The position numbers were made by a program, and so were the translations under genes. Below, piece after piece: positions 5,402-39,370 of a DNA stretch of 39,370 nt. Numbering within the stretch: the stretch's first letter is position 1; each line of letters opens with the position of its first letter. Under the pieces are notes generated by a model. It saw nothing but the letters and a program-made list of their open reading frames with translations, did not search any database and was not told the DNA's origin. The DNA comes from a virus. Where the stretch lies: IMG/VR virus record IMGVR_UViG_3300042284_000040, one strand, 5' to 3'.

Positions 5402-5414
5402 GGAGCGCAAGACA

Positions 5415-5684: not shown

Positions 5685-5722
5685 CAATGGGGGGCTTCGG
5701 CCCCTTAAAGGGAGTAACGACA

Positions 5723-6967: not shown

Positions 6968-6972
6968 CAACA

Positions 6973-7188
6973 GTGCATATCCAGCGCGAACAATTGCGGG
7001 CCATTTATGCCATGCTCAAGCAGGCCGGATACAGCTTTGACACCAGAGCCGAGCGCATCCAGTGGCTGAACGGCTATCGGTTCGCGCTGGGTATGCCAAC
7101 CATAAAGTCATTCAATGACATGACGGCACAGGAAGCCGCGCATTTACAGCGCGACCTATTCAGCACACTGAACCCGCGTGGAGCGTAA
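6973..7188 (+). CDS. Small hypothetical protein (71 aa, GTG start); weak GemA/DUF1018-like pattern
   Basis: AGGAG 9 nt upstream of the GTG at 6973. The pattern REQLRAIYAMLKQAG...MTAQEAAHLQRDL is only a loose resemblance. Confidence 0.4.
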   Translation: MHIQREQLRAIYAMLKQAGYSFDTRAERIQWLNGYRFALGMPTIKSFNDMTAQEAAHLQRDLFSTLNPRGA

Positions 7189-9832: not shown

Positions 9833-10201
9833 TTACGGTTGCATCAGCACGTCATCGCCGGAGAGCAGTTCAGGCTTTTGCGGCCAGTTTATATCATGCG
9901 GGAAATCAAGCTGCTGCGGCACGTCAAGGAGTGCCTGCCTGTATGCCTGAATCGCGTCCTTATCCTCCTGCGGGAGCGTTTCCCACCACGCCGGATTCAT
10001 GCAGTCAACAGAGCACCTGAGCCGGTAGTCCCTCTCCGCCCGCGCCAAGTCCTCGCTGACCACCCAGCGGCCGGAAGCGTCCGCCACATGGTATTCGCTG
10101 GGTCTCTCACCTGACATCAAAACCAAGTCAGGCATTTTCCGTGCCTGAGCCTCTGTCATTATATATTGCAGACTTTCACCTGCTTTTGCGTATATCGGCA
10201 T
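9833..10201 (-). CDS. Tail fibre assembly chaperone-like protein (122 aa)
   Basis: Immediately downstream of the tail fibre gene. The C-terminal pattern AIQAYRQALLDVPQQLDFPHDINWPQKPE is typical of tail fibre assembly proteins. Confidence 0.55.
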   Translation of the reverse strand: MPIYAKAGESLQYIMTEAQARKMPDLVLMSGERPSEYHVADASGRWVVSEDLARAERDYRLRCSVDCMNPAWWETLPQEDKDAIQAYRQALLDVPQQLDFPHDINWPQKPELLSGDDVLMQP

Positions 10202-10202
10202 G

Positions 10203-12191: not shown

Positions 12192-12203
12192 TTCCTCAAC
12201 TCC

Positions 12204-19598: not shown

Positions 19599-19599
19599 A

Positions 19600-21336
19600 T
19601 TATCTGCGTCCTATGCTTTGCAGTTTCCATGCGAGGAAGGCGGCTTTCTTTGCGTCGCCCTTGTCCGCGTATTTCTTTTCCCACGCTGCGCGGTCTATAA
19701 CATCGGGGTCATTCCATGCGAGGTCAAAATCATCGGGAACACTGGACGGCAGCCAGAGCGGGGAACCGTTCGCAATGCTTGAAACAAGCTCCTGCTGCGT
19801 AAACTCGCCGTCGTATATGGCCTGCGCAAGCGTCGAGCCGTCACTGAAAAGACCAGCAATCGGAGACATGAACGACGGTTCGCGACCTTTCACCGCCATA
19901 GCATCCGCCGCCTTCTGGATATAGTCGGTATCCTGCGCGCGGTTAGTTTCGCGCACCTGATTGCGGACAGATTGAATCATTTTGAACTTGGTATCATCGT
20001 TCATTTTTTTCCATTTCTTCGGCCCGAAAGTAGCCTTGAACGCATTTTCGATTGCTGTTTCCGTAACCTTCTGCGATGTGGTCAAAAACTTCACAAGGTC
20101 GCCGTCAAGGTCATCACTCGCAACGCCAACCGCGCGCGGGTCTGACTTTATCTGTTCCGGCGTGTTAATTCTGCCGGAAAGAATATCGTCGCGTATCCCT
20201 ATGTAGTCGCCCGCCTTGGTCAACGGGTTCATGCCGTTTGACCTCTTCCACTCGTTGAGGCGGTTTTCAGCAAAGGTTGCAATGCGCCGGTCTTTTTCGG
20301 TCGCTCTCGGCATGCTGGCAACAAGCGTCTCGGCCTCTTGCAGGTTCGTTGATGCAAGGCTGTCAAGCTCGTCGCGCACAGTGATTGCTCCGCGCTGATA
20401 CTCTTCCTCGTCAATCTTCGCCTTGATTGTCCAAGCGTTTGAGTACGCAGAGCGGGCCGCCGCGCGCTTTACGGGGTCTTTTATTCCCGCAATATCCTGC
20501 CACGCCTCAGACGCAGGCTTGCCGGAATTGTACAGCTCTTCAGCAAAGGCGATGCCGCTTTCCTTGTTTGCCCTCTCGCGGGCATCATCCACCCGGGCAA
20601 GCATGTCATCGTAAGACGAGCCAAGCACCTTACGGTTGTCTGCAAGAAGCTTTTTCGCACCTTGGTAGTCATTGACGGCCAGCCGCTTGTTTATCTGCGT
20701 TTGCGCAATCTCATTATCAACTGCGGCAAGCTCCTTGGTATGGTCTATGCCGCCAAACACCGCGCTAAGCTCGTTGGCATACGCCTGCCGCTGCTTTGCC
20801 ACCTCTTCCGGATTGTCGTTCTCGGCAACAAACTGCATCAGACGCGCCCTGCTGCCATCAATAACGCTTTTCTGCCATGCTGCTTTCTGTTCTGCCGCAT
20901 ATCCAGAGGCGCGCCGGATACTGTTCATTGAATCGCGGACGGAAAGCTTTTGAAACATCAACGCCGCTGCGGGACTATCATTGAACCGTGCCGCTAGTTT
21001 GCTGGCTGTTTTCTCATGAAAAGCTGCAAAGTCCTGCGGCGCATTAAGCGCGGCCTGCCCCTTGTTCTTTTCAAAGTATTCCGACTCAAAAGCCTGCGTT
21101 TCTTTGAAAAGCTCGTTTTGTGCCTCAAGAACTGCCACAGCTTCAAGGCGTTCTTTCTCTTCCTTGGCCTGCTTTGCGTACACTCCGGCAACCTGAGTTG
21201 CGCCTTTTACAAGAGCATCGCCAATACCGGAGTTGAACACCTGCGCGACCGGAAGCCCGCCGGACTGCATGGCAGCAGGCACACCGCCGGAAACACCAGC
21301 AGAAAAGCCCTGCGGCTTATAAATCCTGATTGCCAT
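19600..21336 (-). CDS. Internal virion protein, gp15-position (578 aa)
   Basis: Position between the gp14-like and gp16-slot genes. Alpha-helical, charged composition. No enzymatic motif seen. Confidence 0.45.
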   Translation of the reverse strand: MAIRIYKPQGFSAGVSGGVPAAMQSGGLPVAQVFNSGIGDALVKGATQVAGVYAKQAKEEKERLEAVAVLEAQNELFKETQAFESEYFEKNKGQAALNAPQDFAAFHEKTASKLAARFNDSPAAALMFQKLSVRDSMNSIRRASGYAAEQKAAWQKSVIDGSRARLMQFVAENDNPEEVAKQRQAYANELSAVFGGIDHTKELAAVDNEIAQTQINKRLAVNDYQGAKKLLADNRKVLGSSYDDMLARVDDARERANKESGIAFAEELYNSGKPASEAWQDIAGIKDPVKRAAARSAYSNAWTIKAKIDEEEYQRGAITVRDELDSLASTNLQEAETLVASMPRATEKDRRIATFAENRLNEWKRSNGMNPLTKAGDYIGIRDDILSGRINTPEQIKSDPRAVGVASDDLDGDLVKFLTTSQKVTETAIENAFKATFGPKKWKKMNDDTKFKMIQSVRNQVRETNRAQDTDYIQKAADAMAVKGREPSFMSPIAGLFSDGSTLAQAIYDGEFTQQELVSSIANGSPLWLPSSVPDDFDLAWNDPDVIDRAAWEKKYADKGDAKKAAFLAWKLQSIGRR

Positions 21337-21339
21337 ATT

Positions 21340-21930
21340 TTACCCCGCAAAGTTTCCGGTGTACCAGTTTGTGCCAACCTTAGGCGAGGCAGCTTTGAAG
21401 CCGCCAAACGCGCCATAAACGCCAAGACCAGAGGATGCACCGGATATGCCCGCCGTCAGCAGCGAACCGCCGAAAGAACCGGCGTTGCTATCGTAGAAAT
21501 CGGCCTGAGACCTGAGAACGTTCGATTGCCATTCATGATAGTTAACCTTGCGCTGTGCCTGCCACCCGACAAGCTGTCGTTGCCTTCCAAGCTCCGCGTA
21601 ATCTGCGGCAAACAGGTCAGCATTTCCAGCAAGCGCGGCGAGCGGGCTTCCCGTCGTCAGGTCAACACCGGCAGCCGACAACTCTGCCCTGTTCTGTGCG
21701 GCCTGCATGTCATATTCACGGCGCAAAATCTCCTTCTGCTTGTCCACCTTCTGCTGTTCCAGTTGGCCCTCAATTTTCGTCTGTTCGGCCTCATACTGCT
21801 GGGCGAGCGCATTGTTTCGCGCAACATCCGCCTGATATTCCATTTGCGCGCGCTGGGCTTCGGCAGACATAAAGCCCTGTATTGCCGTTGCGCCGCCAAC
21901 AACTATAGCAGCGGAAAGAGCATCACACAT
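21340..21930 (-). CDS. Internal virion protein B, T7 gp14-like (196 aa)
   Basis: The N-terminus MCDALSAAIVVGGATAIQG...AEAQ resembles the T7 gp14 N-terminus (MCWAAAIPIAISGAQAISGQNAQA, from memory). Similar length, Gly-rich C-terminus, and position after the gp13-like gene. Confidence 0.55.
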   Translation of the reverse strand: MCDALSAAIVVGGATAIQGFMSAEAQRAQMEYQADVARNNALAQQYEAEQTKIEGQLEQQKVDKQKEILRREYDMQAAQNRAELSAAGVDLTTGSPLAALAGNADLFAADYAELGRQRQLVGWQAQRKVNYHEWQSNVLRSQADFYDSNAGSFGGSLLTAGISGASSGLGVYGAFGGFKAASPKVGTNWYTGNFAG

Positions 21931-22402
21931 GGTATCGACTCCTTGTCATATAGAACACGCAAAAAGCATGGTCATATGCTGGGCTTGTCTGAGGTCCTCC
22001 GACCTCAAACCCAAGCCGCTTGATATATCTGATATTCTCCGTACTCGTCGCCAACACAATATTGACCAAACAGGGGAAAACTTCTAGCCACTTTCGCACG
22101 AAGAAACGGCCCATGCGGAGCATAACTTTTCTGCGCCTGTTCAGCCCGTCTGTACCCATCATCCACGGTATCCCCATATCTGCATTGGCGGTCGGAGCGA
22201 GGCCAAAAATTGCCAGCGGCTCATCATCAAATGTCAGAACATCGCAGGTAACACCATGCCGCAGCCCGTAAAGAAGAACGTCCGCCGGTCGGTCATTTGG
22301 ACGCAACCCCCGCAATTCTGCAAGGTCGGTCTCTCTCAATCTCTCGGCAACGCAAAGAACATCCCCAACCGTTGCCGCTCTGACAATTAAACCGCTGCTC
22401 AT
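21923..22402 (-). CDS. gp13-like (DUF2833-like, GNAT-fold-like) virion assembly protein (159 aa)
   Basis: Pattern FGLAP...GIPWMMGT...NIVLATSTENIRYIKRLGFEV. Position directly after the nozzle gene (TAATG overlap). Confidence 0.45.
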   Translation of the reverse strand: MSSGLIVRAATVGDVLCVAERLRETDLAELRGLRPNDRPADVLLYGLRHGVTCDVLTFDDEPLAIFGLAPTANADMGIPWMMGTDGLNRRRKVMLRMGRFFVRKWLEVFPCLVNIVLATSTENIRYIKRLGFEVGGPQTSPAYDHAFCVFYMTRSRYHV

Positions 22403-24492
22403 TACGTTGTTTCCCCCACATCCGTGTCATACGTCACGGAGTGAATCGTTGCCGGTGTCGGGTCATCAACTTGCATGATGAATTTCCACTCATCCGTCCA
22501 GCCGGTAGCAATGACAATTTCCTTGTCGCCGGAACTGAACGGCAGCGCGGCGGGGTCTGTAGCGTCGCGCTGCACCACCTCTTCAAGAGATGCGTTGTCC
22601 GCACCGGCCCACAACCCCATAGAATTGAGAACACGAATATTGACGCTTTTCACGTTGTAGACGCGGGAAAGCGTCGTTCCATTCTGTGAAGTCAACTCAG
22701 GTCTTGTCGGTCTGAGCCTTGACTTAAATGAAAGACCGACGTGCACAACACTTGCAGGTTGGTCAAGTGTGATACTGCCACCAGACACAACACGCGGCGG
22801 CACGGCTGCACCGTCTGCAAGAATGACGACCTCGCGCCCTGAAAGGTGACCAAGGCCGGTTATCGTTGTTGTCGGCGCGCCATCGTACAGAATGCCGCAA
22901 TCCACAAAGTGCGCGGACCGCAGGTCGGTATCAAGGACGAAGAAGTCTGCCATCCGCTCAATATAGCGTTTCTCCACTCCGTCCACAGTCCGGCGCACAA
23001 CAAGCCATACCTCGTCTTTGTCTCCGTTCGGGATGCACGCGACGCGCTCCACAAAGCCGTCAGTTTCGTGCGTATGCCATCCTGCCACCTCATGCATGCG
23101 CATGTATGTGCAGGCCGCAAGCGTGCCATCATCCAGCACGCACCAAATAACGGAGTACGGTGCTTGCTGATATGTCCACGAGACAACTTTTTTCCCAAAG
23201 AAAATCGAGTTTGCGAAAATGGTCAGGTCAGGGGAAACAAAACCGTCTTCGCGGTAATCGTACAGGAACTCGTTAATTTGGCTGCCACCGCGTTGCAGGT
23301 AAAGCACACTCTGCCCGACGACAAGAGCAGGCAGCCCAGCCTCAGAGCCGCAACGTGTGTGAGTTTCAAACTTGGTATTAATAGGTGTCAGCGCGTCGCC
23401 CTCTGAGCCTGTAAGAATCACCTCTGAGCCTTCGGTTCCAATGCACAAGTCTTTTTTACTCTGACACCATGCAATGCGGTTCACACGCTGGGCGGCGAGG
23501 TTTATGTCAATCCCTTGGTCTGCCTGCGGCGGCGTTGCATATGACAAGTTGTCAAAGTCGCTCGACCACGAAAGCCATATGCCAAGCGGACGCTCAGCAG
23601 TGCTTGCCCAACCAAGCCTCTGCTGATGGAAGAAGACAAGGCGCGGATATTTACCGGCTGCATCAAACGGATTTTCAGCCTCAATCGGCGCATCGGCTAT
23701 GTCAGGGCCGATATTTCCGTCTCGGAACGTCGTGTCGCCGCCAACAGCCTTTCCAATGAAGCCAAAAACGCCGGTCTTCTCTTTGTATATGCGGTATTCA
23801 AGAGCGTCGGGCACGGCATTCCAAGACAGGTTTACATAGTCGTCCGTGTACCACTCGCCAACCGGACGACCGTTCGGAACCTCGATTGTAGCAGAGCCAA
23901 CGGATAATTCCCCATCCTGTGATACTGTTGCGACCTTGTACTTGACAGTGTATGTCCCCGCGCTGGAATTGGGATCCGGAACAAACGTCCCCGTCCCGCC
24001 TGTAGGCGGCTGGATGGTAGGCTCAAATGTCAAAACCTCAATCGTCCAGTTGTCATCGGCAAAGCGGCTTATCTTGCGCGGAGCCTGATTACCGCAAGCC
24101 ACAAAAACAACGTCAGCAGACTGCGCAAACGTGAGAAGCGGCACGTCTGCGGCTGTGTACGGCGTTGCAAGCTCATACGGGCTGCCACCACTCATAACAA
24201 GGCCGTCGCGCGTCCAGACCCGCATATAGCCTGCTCCGAACTCAAGAATGCGCGCCTCGTTCTGGGAGAAAATGAACTCTTCCAAAATTACGGGGTTTCC
24301 GGTGTTCGGCTGGTCTTTTGCCTCGCCCATGTAGTACGTCCCTGCACGTCTGGTTGCCGGTCCCTGAGGAAGCGCAACAAAATTCTTCATCACCAGACAG
24401 CCGGACTGATAACGCTGTTGCTCAGGACGTGAGAGCAGCAGCGGAGAAATTACGCCGCCGTTAAACGCATGAGACAGGAGAGCAACACCCAT
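22402..24492 (-). CDS. Tail nozzle protein (tail tubular protein B, T7 gp12-like; 696 aa)
   Basis: The N-terminus SHAFNGGVISPLLLSRPEQQRYQSGCLVMKNF...GPATRR parallels T7 gp12 (NLKGGISQQPDILRYPDQG...GLQKRP, from memory). Size and position after the adaptor fit. Confidence 0.6.
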   Translation of the reverse strand: MGVALLSHAFNGGVISPLLLSRPEQQRYQSGCLVMKNFVALPQGPATRRAGTYYMGEAKDQPNTGNPVILEEFIFSQNEARILEFGAGYMRVWTRDGLVMSGGSPYELATPYTAADVPLLTFAQSADVVFVACGNQAPRKISRFADDNWTIEVLTFEPTIQPPTGGTGTFVPDPNSSAGTYTVKYKVATVSQDGELSVGSATIEVPNGRPVGEWYTDDYVNLSWNAVPDALEYRIYKEKTGVFGFIGKAVGGDTTFRDGNIGPDIADAPIEAENPFDAAGKYPRLVFFHQQRLGWASTAERPLGIWLSWSSDFDNLSYATPPQADQGIDINLAAQRVNRIAWCQSKKDLCIGTEGSEVILTGSEGDALTPINTKFETHTRCGSEAGLPALVVGQSVLYLQRGGSQINEFLYDYREDGFVSPDLTIFANSIFFGKKVVSWTYQQAPYSVIWCVLDDGTLAACTYMRMHEVAGWHTHETDGFVERVACIPNGDKDEVWLVVRRTVDGVEKRYIERMADFFVLDTDLRSAHFVDCGILYDGAPTTTITGLGHLSGREVVILADGAAVPPRVVSGGSITLDQPASVVHVGLSFKSRLRPTRPELTSQNGTTLSRVYNVKSVNIRVLNSMGLWAGADNASLEEVVQRDATDPAALPFSSGDKEIVIATGWTDEWKFIMQVDDPTPATIHSVTYDTDVGETT

Positions 24493-25118
24493 TATGCAAA
24501 CCCTCCTTCGTTATCAGGGTTGTATCCATACCCGCGAGCCGTCAGAAACTTGCATTCCAAGTTTTCGTTTGTCCTGCGAGGAAGGTTGTTGCTATCGTCG
24601 GAAGTCCTTGCCTTGTCCAGCGCGAACTCATAACCCTGCAACATTTGGCTCGTCAGGTTCGACTTCGCAAGGGACGGCGCAATCTCAGCCGCCAGCTTCC
24701 AAGCGACCGTATCAATGAACCCAGCCGGAGCAAATCCAAGGTCTTCCGTATATATGACGTATCGCGCATAGCAGGGGTTCGCGTCCGTGTAGACAATGTT
24801 GCCGGAAACGAGAACATGCTTTTCAGGCTTTGCGGTCAAGTCCGGCACGCTGCGCACATCAAGCAGCCGCAACGCCTCTTGCGGAGCCTGATACGCGAAC
24901 TCAAACCCGAAAGGCGGAGCCTCTTGCAGCTTGGCAAGCGTCGCGTACTTTGTCGCAAACCCCCAGGCATGTTCCTCTATCACCTCGCGCAGCACGTCGC
25001 GTATGGCACTATTGCACTTGTCAGCCTCTTTCCCAGCCTGTGTCAGACTGGAAATGCGGTTCTGCCCAATCTTAAAGAGTGCCTTGTTTGCGATGCTCAA
25101 CAAATGAACTTGCGACAT
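24492..25118 (-). CDS. Head-tail adaptor (tail tubular protein A, T7 gp11-like; 208 aa)
   Basis: N-terminal pattern IANKALFKIGQNRISSLTQ...ADKCNSAIRDVLREVIEEHAWGFA resembles the gp11-family pattern (...IGE.PVS.L...A..IL....R.IQS.GW.F). TAATG overlap with the nozzle gene. Confidence 0.6.
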   Translation of the reverse strand: MSQVHLLSIANKALFKIGQNRISSLTQAGKEADKCNSAIRDVLREVIEEHAWGFATKYATLAKLQEAPPFGFEFAYQAPQEALRLLDVRSVPDLTAKPEKHVLVSGNIVYTDANPCYARYVIYTEDLGFAPAGFIDTVAWKLAAEIAPSLAKSNLTSQMLQGYEFALDKARTSDDSNNLPRRTNENLECKFLTARGYGYNPDNEGGFA

Positions 25119-25133
25119 TCTCTTTCAAACCTC

Positions 25134-25170
25134 CGAAAGAAAAAGGCCGGAGCCGAAAGACTCCGGCCTT
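25134..25170 (-). terminator. Rho-independent terminator downstream of the capsid gene cluster
   Basis: On the minus strand: AAGGCCGGAG, an 8-nt loop, CTCCGGCCTT, then TTTTCTTT. Lies in the gap between 25196 (gene end) and 25118 (next start). Confidence 0.7.
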
Positions 25171-25195
25171 GGTAGGCTCAGATATGAAGCCGGTG

Positions 25196-25393
25196 TTATT
25201 TGGCCCTTTTCTCTTCCTTGGGAGTAACATCCACAAAGAGAGGATGACCTTCAAGCGCGGCGGCTTCTTTCTCATCGCGTGCAAGAACAACGTCGCCAAC
25301 TTTCAGCGGAACACCACGCCAACATGTGCCCTGAGCGTTGCGCTTGAACTTTGCCGCTTCCTTCTTTTCGTAACAAAACTTGAACTGTTTCAT
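25196..25393 (-). CDS. Hypothetical small protein (65 aa)
   Basis: ORF in the capsid cluster, followed by the terminator. Confidence 0.45.
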   Translation of the reverse strand: MKQFKFCYEKKEAAKFKRNAQGTCWRGVPLKVGDVVLARDEKEAAALEGHPLFVDVTPKEEKRAK

Positions 25394-25410
25394 TTTTGCA
25401 GCTCCCCCGA

Positions 25411-25827
25411 TTAGCCTGCGAGGTATTCAAGGAATACGTTGAACTTGCCAGCGGCTGCCACGTCGTCTGTGGTAACGACGGCCTTAATCCACTTCGGGCA
25501 GTCTTCCGGAACAATCAGGGACATAACCCTGTCCCCCATTTCGGGAGCATATGCGCCGGATGTGGTCAGCACGGCAGACGGAACAACGGGCGCAAGAGCC
25601 ACAAAGCTTCCGCCTTCGGTTTCGCTTCCGAGCAAGGAGAGCGTAACCTTTGTGCCCGTTGCAAGGGCGACGTTTCCGTCTGCGGCTGTGATGGTAACCG
25701 CGAGGTTGCCCTGAATACGCCCAACACGGAGAGCTTTCGTAGCCGTGGCCGAAGTGTTCACCGGCACGGTCATGCCCAGCTGAAAAGCGTTGTCCTCAAA
25801 AATAAGCTTATGCTTGTACATGGTCAT
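25411..25827 (-). CDS. Putative capsid decoration / cement protein (138 aa; the start may be the second ATG at 25821)
   Basis: Immediately follows the major capsid gene. Beta-rich Thr/Val/Ala composition. The arrangement resembles MCP plus cement protein in BPP-1-like podoviruses. Position-based call. Confidence 0.35.
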   Translation of the reverse strand: MTMYKHKLIFEDNAFQLGMTVPVNTSATATKALRVGRIQGNLAVTITAADGNVALATGTKVTLSLLGSETEGGSFVALAPVVPSAVLTTSGAYAPEMGDRVMSLIVPEDCPKWIKAVVTTDDVAAAGKFNVFLEYLAG

Positions 25828-25833
25828 AACTCC

Positions 25834-26748
25834 TTACAGGCCGGTGACGACGGTTTCGGTACCATCATACATGTTGTAAGTCGTGATTACGGGAACGCCG
25901 TTCCAGAAATCAATCATGCGGTTGTATTCCTTGTCCTGTACGCCCATCTGCAATGCGCTTTCCTTGAAGGGAGCAAGAGCAAGCGTTTTGCCCTTGGGAT
26001 GACAAATCAGAATCGTGTCGGCAGGCTTCGCGCGAACGTCGGAAAGGATGTCATCCACCATTGCGGCGGTAGGCAGCTTGCCTTCCTGAATGTTGCAGAT
26101 TGCTGCAACGTTGCGGGTAGACAGGTTCTGCCACCCGAAACGCCCCTTCATGGCAACGCCGTATCCGAGGACAGTGCCGCCGGATTCCGTGGTCTTGTAC
26201 AGGTTGCCGCCGTTGATGGGGAACTTGTTCAGCAGCAAGCCTTTGTTGAACTGCGTCGGGTCAAAGAGGCCGTTGTTCACGCCTTCTTCAAGCCGCATCG
26301 CCACGATGGAGTAGACGCCGCCAGAGATTGCACCGGCGTCAATGGCGTTCCCGTCGGCAATGGCCTTTGCAAGCCAGTTTTCATAAATCAGCTTGCGCTC
26401 TGTGTCCTCTCCGGCCCGTTTCAGGATGTGCGGCTCCTTCTTGGCGAAGTATGCAGCGGGGCCGCCGAACTGGTCGGCAGTATCCTGCCGAACTTCCATT
26501 TCGCCACCGAGCACAGTCAGGTCAACCTTCACAAGCTCAGAGCCTACATTCATGGTAGGCAGAGAAGCGTTTGCGTTCACCCATCCTGCACCCTGAATGT
26601 CAATCAACTTTTCCGCCGTGTTCCACATGTTGTGGGAGGCAGCTTCCCATTTCATGCGCTCAAGGACCGGAGTATTTTCGGTCAAGTCGTCAACCATTTT
26701 CGGCTGCTTGTTCGCGTACTTGATGCCAATTTCTTTCAGTGTGTACAT
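25834..26748 (-). CDS. Major capsid protein (304 aa)
   Basis: Position after the scaffold gene, typical size, and followed by a strong terminator. No explicit motif was checked. Confidence 0.65.
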   Translation of the reverse strand: MYTLKEIGIKYANKQPKMVDDLTENTPVLERMKWEAASHNMWNTAEKLIDIQGAGWVNANASLPTMNVGSELVKVDLTVLGGEMEVRQDTADQFGGPAAYFAKKEPHILKRAGEDTERKLIYENWLAKAIADGNAIDAGAISGGVYSIVAMRLEEGVNNGLFDPTQFNKGLLLNKFPINGGNLYKTTESGGTVLGYGVAMKGRFGWQNLSTRNVAAICNIQEGKLPTAAMVDDILSDVRAKPADTILICHPKGKTLALAPFKESALQMGVQDKEYNRMIDFWNGVPVITTYNMYDGTETVVTGL

Positions 26749-26763
26749 GATAACACCATTCCT

Positions 26764-27516
26764 TTATTTATTGAACATGCCTTTGTAGGTGTCTTCGGCA
26801 GAGAGTACCTTCTGGGCACCACCGCCGCCGGAATCGCCGGAGCCTAGCGAATCCTCGCCAATCATTTCCGAAATGACATACAGAGCCTCGATTGCTGCGG
26901 GGTCGTTCGCGAGGTCGAAAGTCGAACCCATGAACGCTTTCCCAAAGCGGCCACCCGTCTTTGCGTCCAGCGCAGAAACCACCTTGAGGGCAGAAACTTT
27001 GTTCTGCTCATACTTGGCACCCCACTCTTTGCGCAGAGCCTCTTCACCGGCCGCAATCTTGGCCTTGTCCGCTTCTGCACTCAGGCTGAGTTGCCAGTCA
27101 GAAAGAGCCTGCGCCGCTTTCGCGGTAATGCCGTGCTCAACGCAGAGATTGCGGAAGCTTTGGTTTATCTTGTCGTCAACATCCACCCCGTCAGGGAACT
27201 GAATATTGACATCATCAACGGACTTCGGCGGGTTGTAGTTGGCTCCTCGCTCCATCGCTTCAAGTGCCGTTTCGATGGAGTCAAACCCTTTCAGCTTTTC
27301 GTGGTAGGCTTCGGGGAAAGACTGGAACCATTCACCTGAGGATCCGGCTCCCTGTTCGTTCCCGTTGGCCTGCCCTTCCTGCTGTCCGTCCGTCTGCTGG
27401 TCATGCTGCCCAGATTCGGGCGGCTGGCCCTGCTGCTGGTCAACAGTGCCCTGCTGCTGGTCATTTCCGGCGGCATTGGTGTTATCCGTACCGACTGCAT
27501 TACCTGCTTTATGCAT
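26764..27516 (-). CDS. Scaffolding protein (250 aa) with a Gln/Gly-rich low-complexity N-terminus
   Basis: Lies between the portal-side genes and the capsid gene. Helical, charged body. N-terminal NDQQQGTVDQQQGQ... region. Confidence 0.6.
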   Translation of the reverse strand: MHKAGNAVGTDNTNAAGNDQQQGTVDQQQGQPPESGQHDQQTDGQQEGQANGNEQGAGSSGEWFQSFPEAYHEKLKGFDSIETALEAMERGANYNPPKSVDDVNIQFPDGVDVDDKINQSFRNLCVEHGITAKAAQALSDWQLSLSAEADKAKIAAGEEALRKEWGAKYEQNKVSALKVVSALDAKTGGRFGKAFMGSTFDLANDPAAIEALYVISEMIGEDSLGSGDSGGGGAQKVLSAEDTYKGMFNK

Positions 27517-27534
27517 GGCAAAATTCTCCTTTCG

Positions 27535-27885
27535 CTATTTGTCTTGCGCGTTGTCAAAGGGGAAAAACAATTTCCGCCTCAGGCGCAGTTTGCGTGTTAT
27601 CTCGTCGTGTGCTTCACCGTCTGCAATTGCTATGTCGTCCATCAAGTCTTGTCCTGCATCACGCAGAGCGGCGACCTTGTGAATGGACGAGTTGCCGCGC
27701 CAGCAGGGTTCAAAGGCTCCAAGCTTGTCCCCAACGAGCACGGCAATAAATTCCCTGCCCGCTTCCGTTGCTATGACCTCGCGCAGCGCATTGAGGTATC
27801 GCTTATCTTCCGGCGAGAATGTATTCTCATACCGGCCTTTTTCGCGCTCCTCTTCTTCTGCGGACATTAAAAACGGTATTGTCAT
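27535..27885 (-). CDS. Hypothetical protein between portal and scaffold (116 aa; possibly Bbp19-like)
   Basis: Conserved slot between portal and scaffold in BPP-1-like phages. The resemblance is from memory only. Confidence 0.35.
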   Translation of the reverse strand: MTIPFLMSAEEEEREKGRYENTFSPEDKRYLNALREVIATEAGREFIAVLVGDKLGAFEPCWRGNSSIHKVAALRDAGQDLMDDIAIADGEAHDEITRKLRLRRKLFFPFDNAQDK

Positions 27886-27888
27886 GGC

Positions 27889-29580
27889 CTATTTTCCCTG
27901 CAAGTCACCGGCAAGAGTGTCTTTTCCGGTATTCATCGCTCCAACCCTTGCCGCCATTTCTGCGGATTGCATCATTGCTTGCTGCTGCTGCTGCTGTGCT
28001 GCCGCCTGAGCCTCAGCCTCTCTTACGGCGGCAACCTCTTCATCAGAGTTTACAACGCGGCCGGAAACCCCCCAGCCCTTGGCAAGCTCGTCGATGCTCT
28101 GGTCCACGTTCAACTTCTGCACCGCCTTAGAACCAAGCTGCCGCGCCTCGCCCTCAAGCCGAATCAGATTCGCAACGTCAGCCGTGAATCCGCGCAGAGC
28201 CTCAACACCGGACATATTCAGAGCCTGAGCAACGATTGAAGTGTATTCAACTTCAATGTCTGCCACCTCTCCAAACTCAGGCGGCGGCGGCGGAATCAAT
28301 CCGTTTCTTTCCAATGCGGAATAGCAACGCGAAATTATCTTGTCCAACACATTAGGCTCATAAGAAGACATCGCGGGCGCAATGAGTTGCAACCGTTCCC
28401 TTTTGCGCTGCATGTATTCACCAAGAGTCATATCAGTAGGGCGCATGTCAGCGGGCAAATCATGGAACAGGTCGGCAAGCGTGATGCTTGCAATGCGCTG
28501 TTCAGTCAATGCAATTTCATTTGCTACTGGAGCAATTGCCGAAGGATGAACCTCGTACAGCGGTGCTATTCCGTTGGGGTCGGACGACGAAACGGGGTTT
28601 TCAGCATCGGGAGCAGTGCGCAGGCGGCTTTTAAACGAGGCGGGCTTGCGCATGGGCGGCGATGTGAGTTTCTGCACCAGTATGAGTTTCTGCCGTTCCA
28701 TTTCCTGCAACGACTGTGCAAGCCCGACAGCAGAGTGCCCACACCCGACACCATAGACAACATCAACGCTCGTTCTGTCCCACGTTGCGAAAAAGTAGGG
28801 CATTTCATGATAGCCGGACACGCGCAACACGTCTTTAACCTCGTTTTCAGTTATCGGGTATTCAAACGTGATTGCCTCATACGGCATATTCTGGTTGTCA
28901 ATTTTGCGCGGGTCGTAGAACTCCCGGGGCCGCACAAGGTGGACAATCTCCACAGGCTCATACTCGTTATTCCTCAGGCGTTCCCTTGTCCGCTGGCTCA
29001 GCTTCTCCTTGCCGTACTTTTTGGCAAGCTGCTGCGGAGTGCGACGCATAAAATGGACAACGGTATCAAGCTCGCCATCCTCGTCAACGGCAACGCAAAA
29101 ACTCCCGCATGTGACCGTTGAGAATCTCAGCAACGAGGTTCTGGAACTGTCCGCAAAAAGCAGGGCATCGCCAAAACCGAGCAGTTCCTGATTGAAAAAC
29201 TGTATCGTCTGGTTGAAGCCACCCTCAGCGAGCAGCGAGTAAATTGTCTGTTCGATGAAATCGAGCCATTCCCGCGCGCCTGTAATCTCCCCCTGTGCGG
29301 GGTTCTTGAAATTCAGCTTAAACCACGGCTGACCGTCCGGAGTCATGCCCGAAGTCATCCCAGCCGCTGCACGCTTGAGCGACATTGATGCGGAGTGATT
29401 CAGAATCAGCTTGTCACTTTCAACCAGAGTTTCAACGCAATCATACCCCCGCCACTGCCCACGGTGCGGCAGTATCCACTTGGCAATGGTCTGTTTTCGC
29501 TCATCGTGCGGCAGTCGCTTTGCCTCAAGGTTCTTGACAATAGCAAGCGCGTCCGTGAGCCGCTTTGATGCCTTGTTCAT
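27889..29580 (-). CDS. Portal (head-to-tail connector) protein, podovirus type (563 aa)
   Basis: Size, position after the terminase, N-terminal pattern ...WILPHRG...LILNHSASMSLKRAAAGMTSGMTPDGQPWF, and C-terminal poly-Gln. Confidence 0.75.
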   Translation of the reverse strand: MNKASKRLTDALAIVKNLEAKRLPHDERKQTIAKWILPHRGQWRGYDCVETLVESDKLILNHSASMSLKRAAAGMTSGMTPDGQPWFKLNFKNPAQGEITGAREWLDFIEQTIYSLLAEGGFNQTIQFFNQELLGFGDALLFADSSRTSLLRFSTVTCGSFCVAVDEDGELDTVVHFMRRTPQQLAKKYGKEKLSQRTRERLRNNEYEPVEIVHLVRPREFYDPRKIDNQNMPYEAITFEYPITENEVKDVLRVSGYHEMPYFFATWDRTSVDVVYGVGCGHSAVGLAQSLQEMERQKLILVQKLTSPPMRKPASFKSRLRTAPDAENPVSSSDPNGIAPLYEVHPSAIAPVANEIALTEQRIASITLADLFHDLPADMRPTDMTLGEYMQRKRERLQLIAPAMSSYEPNVLDKIISRCYSALERNGLIPPPPPEFGEVADIEVEYTSIVAQALNMSGVEALRGFTADVANLIRLEGEARQLGSKAVQKLNVDQSIDELAKGWGVSGRVVNSDEEVAAVREAEAQAAAQQQQQQAMMQSAEMAARVGAMNTGKDTLAGDLQGK

Positions 29581-35039: not shown

Positions 35040-35533
35040 AACTCAAGCCCCCGCGCTTTCTCATCGTAAAGGCTCATGTTTTCGCATGCATCGCACATAT
35101 ACCCGCGTGCATTTGCGCATGTCTGGCGGCATTCAGGGCAAACGAGAGGCTCCAAGCGATCCTTGACTTTCAGGCGGTGCGCCTCAACGGAATGCCAGAA
35201 CGTTGCATTGTGCCGCATGATTTCCAGAAACTGCGGAAGCATCACTTCAAACAGGTCCACATATTCCTCAGCCAACTGGTCAGTTGCGTGATGCGGCAGT
35301 TCATGTGTACCCGCGAGCATGGATGCAAATTTACAGGCTCGTGCTGCAAACTCTGCCGCCTCTTCTGCTGTTTTCAGCATTTGGGCATTGCTCCCGAATC
35401 GTTTCAGCATCCCCATAGCCATAAAACGCAATTCTCCGTCCGGTGTTCTGTTCACGTCACAATCCCCTTCCAGCGCATATTTGCACGCGCTGGGGCCGAA
35501 GGTGTTGCATTCGTTGTTGCACATTACTGCCAC
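35030..35533 (-). CDS. MazG-like nucleotide pyrophosphohydrolase flanked by Cys clusters (167 aa)
   Basis: LKTAEEAAEFAARACKF and QLAEEYVDLFEVML fit the EExxE / EExxD MazG motifs. N-terminal CNNECNTFGPSAC and C-terminal CPECRQTC...CDAC. Confidence 0.45.
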   Translation of the reverse strand: MAVMCNNECNTFGPSACKYALEGDCDVNRTPDGELRFMAMGMLKRFGSNAQMLKTAEEAAEFAARACKFASMLAGTHELPHHATDQLAEEYVDLFEVMLPQFLEIMRHNATFWHSVEAHRLKVKDRLEPLVCPECRQTCANARGYMCDACENMSLYDEKARGLELWA

Positions 35534-35727
35534 CGCCTGCGAATTATATCCTCCCGAATGCTGCTAAGCTCCAAATACGCCATGACAACAAGCGGACCAG
35601 TGTACCCAAAATACATTCTTCCAAACTTGCGATGCACGAGCTTCACATATCGTTCGGCAACTGCAAGCTGTTCGTGTGTTTTGCAACTTGCAACAACTGC
35701 TTTTGCCTTTAGAATTAATTCGTTCAT
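35524..35727 (-). CDS. Hypothetical protein (67 aa)
   Basis: AGGAG 8 nt upstream of the ATG. Confidence 0.5.
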   Translation of the reverse strand: MNELILKAKAVVASCKTHEQLAVAERYVKLVHRKFGRMYFGYTGPLVVMAYLELSSIREDIIRRRWQ

Positions 35728-35729
35728 TG

Positions 35730-35921
35730 CTATTGCTCCTGTTTAATGTTTTTCAAACTTCTTGAGACAAAAGCCTCAATATTAATTTTTTCTACCGCCT
35801 CATCTGCAAGCGTTTTGTAACTGCGCAACAACGCCATAGCCTCTTCACTGCTGAGATTTCCGTTTCTCATAGCAGAAAGCACGGCCCTTCTATGCTTGTC
35901 AGAACTGCTGTTCAACTCCAT
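35730..35921 (-). CDS. Hypothetical protein (63 aa from the internal ATG; start uncertain)
   Basis: The listed ORF 35730..36020 overlaps the primase-helicase 3' end. The ATG at 35921 cuts the overlap to 23 nt, but its RBS spacing is poor. Confidence 0.35.
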   Translation of the reverse strand: MELNSSSDKHRRAVLSAMRNGNLSSEEAMALLRSYKTLADEAVEKINIEAFVSRSLKNIKQEQ

Positions 35922-37605
35922 CCCCTTTTTCGTAATACGTTGATGTATCGACGTGGAAATTAAATTCCATTTTGTCCACTTTGCCATTGCGACGATAGCG
36001 CACCTTCTGGACATAAACATCGGTCCTTCCGGTTTTCATATCGGGACGATGGACGCACAGGGCGATGTCTGCTTTATTCCGCCACATTGCGCCGCCTGCT
36101 ATGTCGTATGGTGTCGGTATAGGGTATCCTCCGTTTTTGTTTTTTTCGAGCTTCGTAGGGTGCGCTATGACGAAAATATGTATTCGGTTCATCCGAGCGA
36201 ACCGGCGTATTTTCGCAAGCTGCCTGCTGATATACTGGTCCTCGCGTTCTCCTGCCTCAAGGGTATGCTTTATCTCGTTCCAAGGGTCGATAACCAGAAT
36301 CTTTATTCCATGCCTGAATATCAGCGACTTTGCGCAAGTCAGGATGTCGTCAATGGTCATCATGTCCACTTCGCTGTCAGGCTGGATGAAATGAAAACCG
36401 GAACGCACATCATCGATTGCGGATTCAAATTCATCCGGCGTCATTTCGTAGAAATTTTTCGTCGCGTACATTTCCAGCAGCAGGGCCAAGTGGTCCTCTG
36501 CTGGCCAGTTTTCAGGGGAGCAGGCAGCCGATGCCCAGCCGTGAATGCGGAACAGGTTTACACGGAGAGCATCAACCCATGTACTTTTGCCGTGAGAGGG
36601 GATTCCGGTAACAATGGTCATCTGGCCGAGTTCGATATTCAGGATGTTTGAATACAGTGGCCAGCCAATATCAACGCCAGCTTTTTTAACGCCAGAGTAT
36701 TTCAGGTCTGATACTGCATCGTACAGGTCGGCGACGCTTTTAACGCCTTCAACAGGAAACGGCTTTGCCGTATCAATCACCTGCCGAAGATGTTGCTTGC
36801 CATGTTTAACGAGCACGTCGTTTGCGTCTTTGCATCCGGCGGGGTGCGTCACTCTGTAACAGCGTTCAACGCCGATTCTTCTTGCAAGCTCCTCCTCAAG
36901 TTTTTTTCCATTCGGGTCGCTGTCCACATACAGGACAATACGAGCAAACTTTGAAAGAAGTTCCTCTGCCCCTTCAAGGAAATCGAACTTGCTTGTATAT
37001 GTCTTTGCATCTGCATTTGGTGCGCCATCCGGAACGGACAGCGAGGCATTGTGCCCAGATTCGATTACAGAAAGGCAATCCATTTCCCCCTCTGTAATTA
37101 CCAGTGTTTCAGAGTTAGAGCGCAGCGCACCGTCAAAGTTATAAAAGCACTTCCTTGCGTTTTTCTCTTGCCTAAAACGCTTATCTCCGGTGCGATACTT
37201 TACGTTTACAACCTCGCCCCCCATGTAGAACGGGAATTGAACAGTATTAACTATGCCGCCACCATCTGCCCCATGCATCCACGCGGGGCCGGACTTAATT
37301 TTCATTGCCGCAAGGGTCTGCGATGAAATGCCGCGCTGCTCAAACCAAGCCCGCGCCTTGTCGTCCACGTCAGCCTCAACGAAGTGAGGCTTTACGAAAT
37401 GCTTTTTCACGGCCTCACGGGCAAAATCACCGAGGCCGCCAGTCCATCCGCAGTGGTGGCAAAACCAGACACCGTTATCAAGGTCAACGCTCAAGTCCTT
37501 GATGTACTGCTTTTTCCTCTGGCGTGAACATTGAGGACACAATGCGCGGGTATGGCCGCTGCCTGCGTCAACCTCAATGCCGAAATCTGCAAACGTCTTT
37601 GTCAT
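35899..37605 (-). CDS. Bifunctional DNA primase-helicase, T7 gp4-like (568 aa)
   Basis: Zinc-binding CPQC...CHHC. Toprim motifs ITEGEMDCLS and YVDSDPNGKK. Helicase Walker A GIPSHGKST and Walker B ILVIDPW. Confidence 0.8.
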   Translation of the reverse strand: MTKTFADFGIEVDAGSGHTRALCPQCSRQRKKQYIKDLSVDLDNGVWFCHHCGWTGGLGDFAREAVKKHFVKPHFVEADVDDKARAWFEQRGISSQTLAAMKIKSGPAWMHGADGGGIVNTVQFPFYMGGEVVNVKYRTGDKRFRQEKNARKCFYNFDGALRSNSETLVITEGEMDCLSVIESGHNASLSVPDGAPNADAKTYTSKFDFLEGAEELLSKFARIVLYVDSDPNGKKLEEELARRIGVERCYRVTHPAGCKDANDVLVKHGKQHLRQVIDTAKPFPVEGVKSVADLYDAVSDLKYSGVKKAGVDIGWPLYSNILNIELGQMTIVTGIPSHGKSTWVDALRVNLFRIHGWASAACSPENWPAEDHLALLLEMYATKNFYEMTPDEFESAIDDVRSGFHFIQPDSEVDMMTIDDILTCAKSLIFRHGIKILVIDPWNEIKHTLEAGEREDQYISRQLAKIRRFARMNRIHIFVIAHPTKLEKNKNGGYPIPTPYDIAGGAMWRNKADIALCVHRPDMKTGRTDVYVQKVRYRRNGKVDKMEFNFHVDTSTYYEKGDGVEQQF

Positions 37606-37615
37606 GCCATGCCTG

Positions 37616-38404
37616 CTACAAAAAATGGTTGATGTCGTTGGGGTCGTTCAGCCATGCGTAATCAGGATTTGATGCCCGTGCATGCGCCCCTCTCTGTTTC
37701 TCCCATGCCGCATACATATTCTGGAACTTTGTCAACCCATTCGACTTTGACCGCTTCCGCAACCCTGTGATGCTTCGTGCGTTCGTACTCCAGAAGTCAT
37801 CCTCAAGTGCCCACCTGAGAACCTCGCGGATTTGGTCGAGTGTCCAGCCGTCCTTCTCTGTCATCAGCCTGAGCACTTGGCAGGCTGTGTTCGTGCTTGA
37901 CTCTGTAGCCTTCGGAGCCATTGCGCCGAGTGTCGCCGAAACGTGGTTTTGAAATGCCGTCACGAACTCCAAAATTTGGGGGTCACATATTGGTTTCCTT
38001 TGTTCCCTTGGTTCCCTTGGTTCCGTACCAGTTTTGAATGTGTCAACTGGTGTGTCAACTGGTGTGTCAACTGGTGTGTCAACTGGTGTGTCAGTTACTG
38101 TGTCAGTTACTGTGTCAGTTACTGGTACAGTAAAGTTTAAAGTATAGTTATTACTGTTATATTTATTGAATTTCTGCCGCGTTGTCCGCCATGAAATCAT
38201 TCCCATTTCAGCCAGTTCACTCAATGCTCTTTGAACAGTTGTAGGGCTGGCTGAAATCGCAAGCGCGAGCGTCCTCACTGAGGGGTTGCAAACACCTGTC
38301 TTTCTGTTCTGGAATGAAAAAAGAGCGACAGCTAACAACTTGGCGGACGTGCTCGCCTCAGACTCTAAAATAACGTCAAGCGTCTGATATGCGAGAGCCT
38401 TCAT
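37616..38404 (-). CDS. Putative replication initiator / replisome organiser with N-terminal HTH and a repeat-encoded linker (262 aa)
   Basis: N-terminus ...NPSVRTLALAISASPTTVQRALSELAEMGMI (winged-helix/HTH_36-like). Linker (TDTV)x3(DTPV)x4. Sits upstream of the primase-helicase. Confidence 0.55.
   Translation of the reverse strand: MKALAYQTLDVILESEASTSAKLLAVALFSFQNRKTGVCNPSVRTLALAISASPTTVQRALSELAEMGMISWRTTRQKFNKYNSNNYTLNFTVPVTDTVTDTVTDTPVDTPVDTPVDTPVDTFKTGTEPREPREQRKPICDPQILEFVTAFQNHVSATLGAMAPKATESSTNTACQVLRLMTEKDGWTLDQIREVLRWALEDDFWSTNARSITGLRKRSKSNGLTKFQNMYAAWEKQRGAHARASNPDYAWLNDPNDINHFL
37993..38028. repeat. Four tandem 9-bp repeats (GTTYCCKTK)
   Basis: gtttccttt gttcccttg gttcccttg gttccgtac, read directly. 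Encodes EPREPREQRKP on the minus strand. Confidence 0.8.
38039..38122. repeat. Seven tandem 12-bp repeats: 4x TGTGTCAACTGG then 3x TGTGTCAGTTAC (iteron-like)
   Basis: Perfect copies read directly at 38039-38086 and 38087-38122. Followed by an AT-rich tract at 38123-38175. Confidence 0.9.
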
Positions 38405-38408
38405 TTAC

Positions 38409-38549
38409 TCACCGCTCCTTCGGCGTATCAAAACGCGCAGTTTTACAATGCGGGCATATGCGAACCTTCTTTTCATCTCTTGGCATCCACTCATGGCCGC
38501 AACGCTGACATACAAAAATGCGAACCTTTATTTCTTTTATATGCTTCAC
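38409..38549 (-). CDS. Unlisted 46-aa zinc-ribbon protein (VKHIKEIKVRIFVCQRCGHEWMPRDEKKVRICPHCKTARFDTPKER)
   Basis: Hand translation. The GTG at 38549 follows AAGGAG with an 8-nt spacer. Two CxxC pairs. Ends 4 nt before the initiator ATG. Confidence 0.55.
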   Translation of the reverse strand: MKHIKEIKVRIFVCQRCGHEWMPRDEKKVRICPHCKTARFDTPKER

Positions 38550-38592
38550 CTTCTATACTCCTTAGGTTTACCTTTCAGGTAGTTTCTAGCCC

Positions 38593-38628
38593 AAAAAAAA
38601 CGCACCTGTCTACCCCCTCAGGCAGTGT
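38593..38628 (-). terminator. Possible weak terminator/attenuator (imperfect hairpin followed by T8 on the minus strand)
   Basis: Minus strand: CACTGCCTG-AGGGGGTAGA-CAGGTGCG-TTTTTTTT. The stem is short and bulged. Confidence 0.3.
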
Positions 38629-38701: not shown

Positions 38702-38728
38702 AGCCCCTCAAACGAGGGGCTTTTTTTT
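38702..38728 (+). terminator. Strong hairpin with T8 on the plus strand (AGCCCCTC-AAAC-GAGGGGCT-TTTTTTT); on the minus strand it follows the end of the early-left operon
   Basis: 8-bp G/C stem with a 4-nt loop. The T-run is only on the plus strand, and an A8-like run precedes it on the minus strand. Confidence 0.55.
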
Positions 38729-38734
38729 GCTTTG

Positions 38735-38962
38735 CTACTGTCTGCATTGTGACCTCGCTATAAATAGGGCTATAGGGCCAACGATGAGCGAAACAACATC
38801 CCCGTATTCTTTGTGCAGTGACACCATCCCAAAATGGATATTGTGCCGCTCATCATCGTATTTTACAAACCAAACACGCGGCTTTTCATCCGAGAGCTTT
38901 AATGAGACGCAGAAATTAGAATTGCGCAATGACCACTCTTTTATGAAAAGAGTTTTAGCCAT
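38735..38962 (-). CDS. Hypothetical protein (75 aa from the internal ATG of the listed 38735..39163 ORF)
   Basis: The ATG at 38962 follows GGAGGG. ATGGCTAA stop-start overlap with the upstream gene. Last gene of the leftward early operon. Confidence 0.5.
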   Translation of the reverse strand: MAKTLFIKEWSLRNSNFCVSLKLSDEKPRVWFVKYDDERHNIHFGMVSLHKEYGDVVSLIVGPIALFIARSQCRQ

Positions 38963-39370
38963 TGTGCTGTTCCCTCCACTCGATGTATGCCTTGCAGATT
39001 GCAACGCAGGGGTTGAACCAAGAACACTCCCAACACTCCACCAGAAGCTCATTCTGTTGCGGCTGCATGATGCCATCAACCTTGACACGCTCAACAGTCC
39101 AGACCTGTACCATTGTCCATCGGTCATCGTATGGTTCTTGGCTTTCTGCTTGAAATTCAACATTGACTATCAGGCCTGCTGCCTGAATTTCGCGTATCAA
39201 TTCAAACGCAGCATTCATGTCTTCGGCGTAGTTTTTTGCAGGCGCGCTTCTGGCCCCGCACTTCTTGCATTCGCCGCGCTTATCCACGTCTTCTTTGTAG
39301 CCCTGCACTACGCCGCAGACTTTACATCTGCACAGCGTGCCAAGGCCGTCGGGGACGGTGTATGCGTCAT
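38955..39370 (-). CDS. 3' part of the junction-spanning gene (hypothetical protein, 159 aa once circularised; the ORF is open to the window end)
   Basis: The reading frame stays open from 39308 up to 39370 and continues in the identical copy at 1-191, where a GTG with an AAGGAG RBS is found. Confidence 0.6.
   Translation of the reverse strand, partial: DAYTVPDGLGTLCRCKVCGVVQGYKEDVDKRGECKKCGARSAPAKNYAEDMNAAFELIREIQAAGLIVNVEFQAESQEPYDDRWTMVQVWTVERVKVDGIMQPQQNELLVECWECSWFNPCVAICKAYIEWREQHNG
39244..39370. repeat. Terminal overlap copy 2 (identical to 1-127)
   Basis: Verbatim repeat of the first 127 bases. Confidence 0.9.

Follow-up and report, generated by a model that had tools for sequence, protein, structure and literature searches.

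The DNA examined here, called the window throughout, is a stretch of 39,370 nucleotides from a virus (IMG/VR record IMGVR_UViG_3300042284_000040). We propose that positions 37990-38175 of the window form the vegetative (theta-type) replication origin of this P22-like phage of about 39.2 kb, and that the origin lies inside the linker-coding part of the phage's own initiator gene, an open reading frame (ORF) of 262 amino acids on the minus strand at 37616-38404. Judging from the sequence of the phage and its relatives, we put the probability of this assignment at about three in four. The gene houses a set of 12-bp iterons, an AT-rich tract and an array of 9-bp repeats. The repeats lie between two protein domains, they adjoin an easily melted segment, and they co-vary with the DNA-binding domain, as would be expected of an origin within an initiator gene. 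An initial annotation had likened this arrangement to the lambda O/ori-lambda design, and both the exchange of a cassette with a sister phage and the arrays in more distant relatives support the comparison. The design itself is textbook, and this would be an ordinary example of the origin-in-initiator layout, here paired with a fused primase-helicase.

Repeats, AT-rich tract and initiator

Tandem Repeats Finder reports two overlapping arrays of period 12 with 100% matches: type-A iterons, TGTGTCAACTGG, at 38039-38093 (4.6 copies, score 110) and type-B iterons, TGTGTCAGTTAC, at 38087-38124 (3.2 copies, score 76). Counted as whole units, they comprise four perfect type-A copies at 38039-38086, which read CCAGTTGACACA on the gene strand, and three perfect type-B copies at 38087-38122, which read GTAACTGACACA; these are the counts that the initial annotation had given. 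The units are arranged head-to-tail and come in two spacer subtypes with a common core, TGTGTCA. A 4+1+4 palindrome, CAGTAACTG, is present inside the type-B iteron only. The two arrays are the top-scoring tandem repeats of the window, the runner-up (score 56) being the adjoining 9-bp array at 37990-38024. TGTGTCA occurs nine times in the whole window (4.7 expected), seven of them in the array, and no near-copy of either 12-mer stands out elsewhere in the window, leaving the genome without a second iteron cluster. The peptide encoded by the seven iterons is VTDTVTDTVTDTPVDTPVDTPVDTPVDT.

Four units, TTGGTTTCC, TTTGTTCCC, TTGGTTCCC and TTGGTTCCG, make up the 9-bp array at 37990-38025 (period 9, 3.9 copies); the repeats first placed at 37993-38028 are real and represent another register of the same array. 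On the gene strand it reads GGAACCAAG twice, then GGAACAAAG and GAAACCAAT, which makes it a phased AAC[C/A] array, and it is translated as EPREPREQRKP. The order in gene sense is the winged-helix domain, the AT-rich tract, GTAACTGACACA three times, CCAGTTGACACA four times, four 9-mers resembling GGAACCAAG, and the C-terminal domain. The repeat codons are rare in the window genome yet used uniformly: AGG accounts for 12% of Arg codons, GTA for 11% of Val codons, and CCA, which occurs in the type-A iteron, is the rarest Pro codon at 7%. An inverted repeat with 8-bp arms, GTACCAGT at 38025-38032 and its partner ACTGGTAC at 38121-38128, brackets the seven iterons exactly, and a related inverted repeat was also detected; the pair was spotted post hoc, so its significance is uncertain, although the boundary ACTGGTAC(A/G)GAAC is kept in two relatives, L123 and L166. 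The predicted single-stranded DNA fold of 37985-38180 is unremarkable (z = -1.55), and a scan for promoters and terminators gave counts at chance level.

The initial annotation had also pointed to an AT-rich stretch beside the repeats, and this stretch proves to hold the stability minimum of the genome, directly flanking the array. The AT-rich tract at 38124-38175 has a GC content of 0.20 and is the best thermodynamic candidate for a DNA unwinding element; at lengths of 40-60 nt nothing in the window is more AT-rich or less stable. It includes the most AT-rich 50-mer of the window (38126-38175, 82%) and the least stable 40-mer (38131-38170), with a nearest-neighbour free energy of -40.0 kcal/mol against a mean of -58.6 (standard deviation 3.9; z = +4.8), only 9 nt from the nearest iteron. 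The 9-bp array is of ordinary stability within the window (z about +1), and thermodynamics favours the AT-rich tract over the 9-bp array as the melting flank. As a caveat, unwinding may involve more than the AT-rich tract: in relatives further removed from the window phage, the stability minimum is found on the opposite side of the iterons, where the counterpart of the 9-bp array lies. The window has other segments of low stability at 38525-38587 and 35695-35794.

The host gene had been described as encoding an initiator-like helix-turn-helix (HTH) protein, and family searches agree. Residues 18-68 match Pfam HTH_36 (PF13730) with 38.8 bits (E 8.2e-10), above the curated gathering cut-off of 25 bits, and among PHROGs the top match is 391, 'replication initiation O-like' (7.7e-20), a label that is an annotation and does not denote membership of the lambda O family. 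The Pfam families matched by the protein are HTH_36 and weaker generic HTH families; neither the lambda-type O family nor the plasmid Rep families (RepA/pi/RepE/TrfA type) gave a match, and a sequence search of the PDB found no relative (best E-value 0.33). The protein appears to consist of a winged-HTH N-terminal domain at about residues 1-91 (38132-38404), a repeat-encoding linker at about 92-141 and a helical C-terminal domain at about 135-262. An AlphaFold2 model from the single sequence, of low confidence (pLDDT 55), is winged-helix-like over 1-91, has no secondary structure over 92-141 and is helical over 142-240. An exhaustive HMMER search with the initiator returned 1330 representative proteins (E <= 0.001), of which many align only to residues 5-138 or so and many others only to about 130-255. 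The two halves are independently shuffled modules, since different sets of homologues match each of them, and the repeats lie between the HTH_36 domain and the separately shuffled C-terminal domain, in the inter-domain linker as had been claimed.

Exchange with a sister phage and arrays in relatives

Close relatives of the initiator are few. Neither megablast of the region nor tblastn of the full initiator found a match among 50,697 phage records, in which the isolated N-terminal domain does find distant 'O' proteins, and the single initiator protein searched against viral contigs yielded no related locus. A protein search with the full initiator gave two matches, one of which, P0001, is the one close relative found: over the part that aligns (46% of the query), its C-terminal region shows 98% identity, and its N-terminal half differs. 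The locus carrying P0001, L001, is on a 40,993-bp Joint Genome Institute metagenome contig, of which 20.8 kb were compared. Most of the DNA compared is 97-99.8% identical by blastn, and identity is 99.8% across 35457-37969, which covers the primase-helicase gene and the part of the initiator gene that encodes its C-terminal domain. Between 37970 and 38555 (586 bp) blastn found no DNA similarity to the corresponding block of L001 (9842-10462), and similarity resumes, again at 99.8%, from 38556. The left junction of the exchanged block is about 20 nt past the 9-bp array.

The L001 block encodes another winged-helix domain and a diverged CxxC...CxxC counterpart of the Zn-ribbon ORF that lies upstream of the window's initiator gene. 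The two N-terminal domains have only the HTH core in common (hhalign probability 95% over 36 columns). The corresponding place in the L001 gene holds an 11-bp repeat, AGCGACCAGCA (6.7 copies), and after it an A-rich 9-bp repeat, AAGAATGAA (4.6 copies); among the 40-mers of the 20.8-kb locus, the stability minimum falls in this A-rich stretch. The 11-bp repeat is not a peptide repeat because its period is not a multiple of 3. We therefore regard 37970-38555, with the Zn-ribbon ORF, the N-terminal domain, the AT-rich tract, the 12-bp iterons and the 9-bp array, as a proposed exchangeable cassette for origin specificity. Such a pattern would be seen if an origin moved along with the DNA-binding domain that recognises it and the C-terminal domain remained with its helicase.

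To look beyond this pair, an alignment of the N-terminal domain was used as a peptide pattern, blind to the repeats, which recovered 37 viral-contig loci in 19 sequence groups. The initial annotation had called for a comparison among related phages, and Tandem Repeats Finder found an array at the same gene position, right after the winged helix at about nucleotides 270-520 of the ORF, in 17 of the 19 groups. Iteron sequences differ between these relatives, with periods of 12, 15, 18, 19, 21, 22, 23 or 24 bp, and many units are dyads. The periods in 8 groups (19, 22 and 23 bp) are not multiples of three, and these arrays are therefore DNA elements and not peptide repeats. The locus-wide least stable 40-mer is at, or shortly past, the 3' end of the array in ten relatives, and immediately 5' of it, as in the window, in L170 (GC 0.55) and L167, both of which have 12-bp arrays. 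In L002, L123 and L127 a stability minimum just 5' of the array holds for the gene and not for the whole locus.

L166, whose N-terminal domain is 51% identical to the window's and whose genome has a GC content of 0.40, offers the most direct comparison. It carries CCAGTTGATACA twice and TCAACTGATACA twice, then ACTGGTACA, then GAACATAAG, GAACATAAA and GAACAAAAG; the window counterpart is CCAGTTGACACA four times and GTAACTGACACA three times, then ACTGGTACG, then GAACCAAGG twice and GAACAAAGG. The two iteron subtypes, the boundary sequence and the 9-bp array are thus conserved as DNA, while the peptide that the 9-bp array encodes changes between L166 and the window (EHK vs EPR). The type-A unit with one synonymous change (CCAGTTGATACA) recurs in L166 and L002; the two keep the unit CCAGTTGAYACA with codons CCA GTT GAY ACA. 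More generally, the closer relatives retain the AT-rich flank and the 9-bp array along with the unit CCAGTTGAYACA. Among named phages, SfII, SfIV, Klebsiella phage 1 LV-2017 and Yersinia YeP1 have distant homologues of the N-terminal domain (35-44% identity), and their genes contain an internal 15-bp array, TCTGACCCGTCAAAA, in 4-5 copies, followed by a low-stability segment. No origin feature is annotated over the gene in the records of these phages that we examined.

Further evidence comes from the TGTGTCA core. Scanning viral contigs for this heptamer at 12-bp phase gave at least 120 loci, 82 of which (48 distinct proteins) are antisense in initiators of about 280 amino acids that belong to a second winged-helix family, the one that also includes the N-terminal domains of L001 and L002. 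These initiators (found among L003-L122, viral contigs mostly from sample 3300045988) begin with MEGYIKLSRKFF... and have about 8 copies of TGACACA each; phmmer of the window's initiator domains against the ORFs around the TGTGTCA arrays found no match. Across the 48 proteins, 226 copies of TGACACA are read as xDT and 156 as (V/M/L)T(Q/H), and one DNA word read in two frames argues that selection acts on the DNA. Some genes of this family have two or four separate arrays, an example being L022 (341 aa).

These data bear on the possibility that the repeats are a low-complexity peptide linker ((V/P)(T/V)DT and EPR) made by slippage, with no role at the DNA level and with the origin elsewhere. 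The origin reading has several points to its discredit, and some of them speak for such a linker. The period of 12 bp is divisible by 3, and perfect copies are what a recent expansion would leave, so that in this phage alone slippage in a peptide linker would look alike; 4-residue peptide repeats occur at the linker position in homologues of the N-terminal domain; and the same DNA encodes PVDT repeats in large non-initiator ORFs and in an unrelated small one, the L160 ORF of 108 amino acids (5916-6242, minus strand), which has three perfect copies of TGTGTCAACTGG plus variants and no HTH. About 38 of the TGTGTCA loci are outside initiators, including very large ORFs of giant-virus metagenome-assembled genomes, and the exact pair of window 12-mers occurs in one metagenome contig only, Ga0114994_10010467, which is very AT-rich and carries the L160 ORF. 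The AT-rich tract also codes for the wing of the winged helix, KFNKYNSNNYTLNF, which is conserved and rich in N, K, Y and F, so the protein accounts for part of the composition. No array was detected in two of the groups (L130 and L132/L133), no DnaA boxes lie near the array (their count is not above chance), and the cassette exchange could be mere physical linkage of the linker to the N-terminal domain. Finally, skew gives no support. It had been suggested as a check on the origin, on a 39,243-bp circle; the circle is sound, but the GC and cumulative skew of the window is negative nearly throughout and flips only at gene-strand switches (about 3-10 kb), so that it tracks gene strand and carries no information either way.

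Set against the linker explanation are the arrays at the homologous position with periods of 11, 19, 22 and 23 bp, a second array in L143 (13-bp period) that is read in three frames, the reading of TGACACA in two frames within single genes, the uniform use of the rare codons CCA, GTA and AGG, which are shared with low-GC relatives, and the position of the array next to the genome-wide stability minimum. We consider a pure peptide linker quite improbable. For the family as a whole, non-triplet periods, motifs in two to three frames and shared rare codons indicate that the repeats are constrained as DNA and not as peptide; for the window's own 12-bp array the evidence for such constraint is indirect. 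Because TGTGTCA arrays are found in unrelated contexts, the repeat sequence alone is not diagnostic, and it is the position within the initiator gene that is. Across relatives, the repeats vary together with the DNA-binding domain of the initiator as a single specificity unit, as seen in the L001 exchange and in the differing iterons. The exact iteron pair is absent from 185,579 species genomes, so it provides neither a clue to the host nor a copy-number series.

A second alternative accepts that the iterons bind the initiator and gives them mainly a control function (autoregulation of an early operon, titration or handcuffing, or exclusion of related phages), with the DNA opened elsewhere, for example at intergenic 38501-38600 or at 35695-35794. 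A promoter-driven, T7-like mode with a gp4-type primase-helicase is one possibility, and the presence of a T7 gp4-like primase-helicase and of the low-stability segments at 38525-38587 and 35695-35794 fits such a scheme. Iterons in plasmids have control roles as well. The stability minimum is, however, directly at the iterons and not at either of these sites, the genome has no other iteron cluster that could serve, and the intragenic combination of iterons and low-stability DNA recurs with different helicases, including the plain DnaB-type helicases encoded downstream of the initiator in L166, L167 and L170. We think this explanation unlikely, and together with the pure peptide linker it is the main residual alternative to an intragenic origin.

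The array might also be a site for some other protein or process: the 46-aa Zn-ribbon protein, a partition or centromere-like function, or packaging. The Zn-ribbon ORF is exchanged jointly with the repeats, and repeat arrays serve as centromeres in some phage-plasmids. We saw no partition genes, the terminase gene is distant (in L001, Sf6_terminase is about 6 kb downstream), and L166, L167 and L170 have arrays while Pfam listed no Zn-ribbon family for their small upstream ORFs. The conserved feature is the position between the initiator domains. We consider a site of this kind very improbable.

A phased AAC[C/A] array beside the iterons

The 9-bp array of the window has counterparts in other loci. 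In 17 of 18 loci with a related N-terminal domain, the 60 nt after the iterons contain a strand-specific AAC[C/A] motif in 3-5 copies (two in L124) spaced 9-15 nt apart. Summed over the loci, 60 copies follow the iterons where 10.1 would be expected, and the 60 nt preceding the array contain 11; the motif was picked after inspecting the data, which inflates the statistic. The loci with a phased AAC[C/A] array just 3' of the iterons include L123, L126, L127, L131, L134, L135, L138, L143, L151, L152, L154, L157, L158, L166 and L170. In L143 the array takes the form of AACAAGG at a 13-nt period. Four later loci range from weak to clear, with five copies at 9-nt spacing in L170, three to four in L166, two in L167 and one in L169. 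Halomonas phage QHHSV-1 shows the array as well. It is not evident in the group of SfII, SfIV and the Klebsiella and Yersinia phages, so the motif is frequent and not universal, and in the second winged-helix family (L001 and L002) AAGAA(T)GAA is found in its place.

The AAC[C/A] array stays while the iterons themselves differ between relatives, and on this pattern it may be a second, more conserved origin element. Our searches of the open-access literature turned up no earlier description of a phased AAC[C/A] array. One could go further and read the genes of these relatives, meaning part of the 1330 clusters together with the named 'O' proteins of the SfII/SfIV/Klebsiella type, as sharing an undescribed three-part origin grammar of iterons with an 11-24-bp period, a low-stability segment and a phased AAC[C/A] array. 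We offer this generalization tentatively and rather doubt it. Were it true, AAC[C/A] could be a sequence-specific element for single-strand binding or helicase entry, comparable to DnaA-trios or to the 13-mers of plasmid unwinding elements, and the real melting or loading site in the window could be the 9-bp array at 37990-38025 and not the AT-rich tract.

Proposed mechanism, known systems and genome setting

If 37990-38175 is the origin, initiation would begin with binding of the N-terminal winged-HTH domain to the seven 12-bp iterons. The 12-bp spacing would rotate successive sites by about 50 degrees, and by analogy with the lambda O-some a wrapped complex is plausible. The nucleoprotein complex would then destabilise one flank, either the AT-rich tract at 38124-38175 or the AAC[C/A] 9-bp array at 37990-38025, and the C-terminal domain of the initiator would recruit the phage primase-helicase encoded immediately downstream, after which host polymerase would take over. 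The DNA-binding domain and its cognate repeats would constitute one exchangeable specificity cassette, with the C-terminal domain staying with the helicase that it contacts.

The best-known precedent is ori-lambda, which is in the middle of O and consists of iterons and an AT-rich tract (PMC7466680). The window resembles lambda and its Shiga toxin (Stx) phage variants in having a mid-gene origin with tandem repeats, there bound by the initiator, beside an AT-rich tract, in the division between an N-terminal domain that sets the origin and a C-terminal part that links to the helicase, and in the variation of repeat number and specificity among related phages. It differs in several respects. The window has seven 12-bp head-to-tail units of two subtypes, whereas lambda has four to six dyad iterons of about 19-20 bp; the AT-rich tract is 5' of the iterons in gene sense in the window and 3' in lambda; the partner is a phage-encoded primase-helicase, whereas lambda uses a P-type loader for host DnaB; and the N-terminal domain is HTH_36 rather than the lambda-type O Pfam family.

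In logic, the initiator and primase-helicase of the window are closest to the 18/12 initiator-helicase module of P22. Gene 18 of P22 contains four repeats of about 20 bp, and gene 18 of phage L contains six imprecise 11-bp repeats, inside the gene (PMC8022706). The likeness includes the P22-like podovirus background (seen in the L001 domains), an O-like initiator followed by a phage helicase with no loader, and repeats within the initiator gene; the sister phage's own 11-bp array (L001) closely resembles the phage L repeats. Unlike the gene 12 helicase, that of the window is fused to a DnaG-type primase (gp4/Twinkle-like), and the window has two iteron subtypes, a second array of 9-bp repeats and an initiator sequence that is not detectably close. 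In SPP1, oriL is inside gene 38, the gene of the origin-binding protein, and has direct repeats together with an AT-rich DNA unwinding element (PMC6316719), an arrangement like that proposed here. SPP1 also has a second origin copy, oriR, and encodes its loader (gp39) and its helicase (gp40) as separate proteins, whereas the window has a single array and no loader. The HTH_36 proteins of SfII, SfIV and the Klebsiella and Yersinia phages, annotated as 'replication protein O' or 'primosomal protein', share homologous N-terminal domains, an internal array and a low-stability segment with the window and differ from it in iteron sequence and period, in the C-terminal domain and in the downstream partner.

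The primase-helicase gene (35899-37605, minus strand) is directly downstream of the initiator gene. Its product combines in one polypeptide the features of the T7 gp4/Twinkle type: a zinc motif (CxxC...CxxC in residues 23-53), a Toprim core (Toprim_2, 33.2 bits against a cut-off of 22.1) and a DnaB-family C-terminal domain (DnaB_C, 31.0 bits against a cut-off of 27). PHROG 239, 'DNA primase/helicase' (4e-94), agrees with these matches and bears out the initial identification of a gp4-type enzyme next door; no GenBank phage protein exceeds 34% identity to it. No loader family was matched among the neighbouring ORFs scanned. The end of the gene overlaps a 96-aa ORF (35730-36020), and just downstream, among small ORFs, is 35695-35794, which at 71% AT ranks second in the genome for low stability among 100-bp segments.

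Immediately upstream of the initiator gene is the 46-aa Zn-ribbon ORF with its CxxC...CxxC motif (38409-38549, minus strand), which may be functionally tied to the origin cassette, given their joint exchange. A strong hairpin resembling an intrinsic terminator, AGCCCCTCAAACGAGGGGCT followed by T8, is found at 38702-38729 on the plus strand, opposed to the surrounding minus-strand genes. It is conserved in L001 (9672-9700) and might keep antisense transcripts from entering the replication module. Positions 1-127 of the window are exactly duplicated at 39244-39370, and this 127-nt terminal direct duplication makes the circle of 39,243 bp reasonable; genes near the window ends (e.g. 38955-39308) run across the circle junction. 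Besides the origin cassette, the comparison with L001, which carries Sf6-type terminase, portal and tailspike domains, shows further mosaic gaps at about 5412-6981, 7849-8163 and 38728-201 of the window, while 10091-28050 is past the end of the L001 locus compared. One ORF of 2464 amino acids (12204-19598, minus strand) is unusually large for a podovirus-like genome of 39 kb.

The assignment gives an uncultured P22-like phage with no close GenBank relative an origin that can be tested. The window phage and L001, which differ essentially by one cassette, are a natural pair for testing the specificity between initiator and origin, and they are equally suited to the question of how an O-like initiator passes DNA to a gp4-type primase-helicase without a loader. 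For the family, the origins in many phage replication modules of the HTH_36 type could probably be annotated by a simple rule, namely the intragenic array just after the winged helix.

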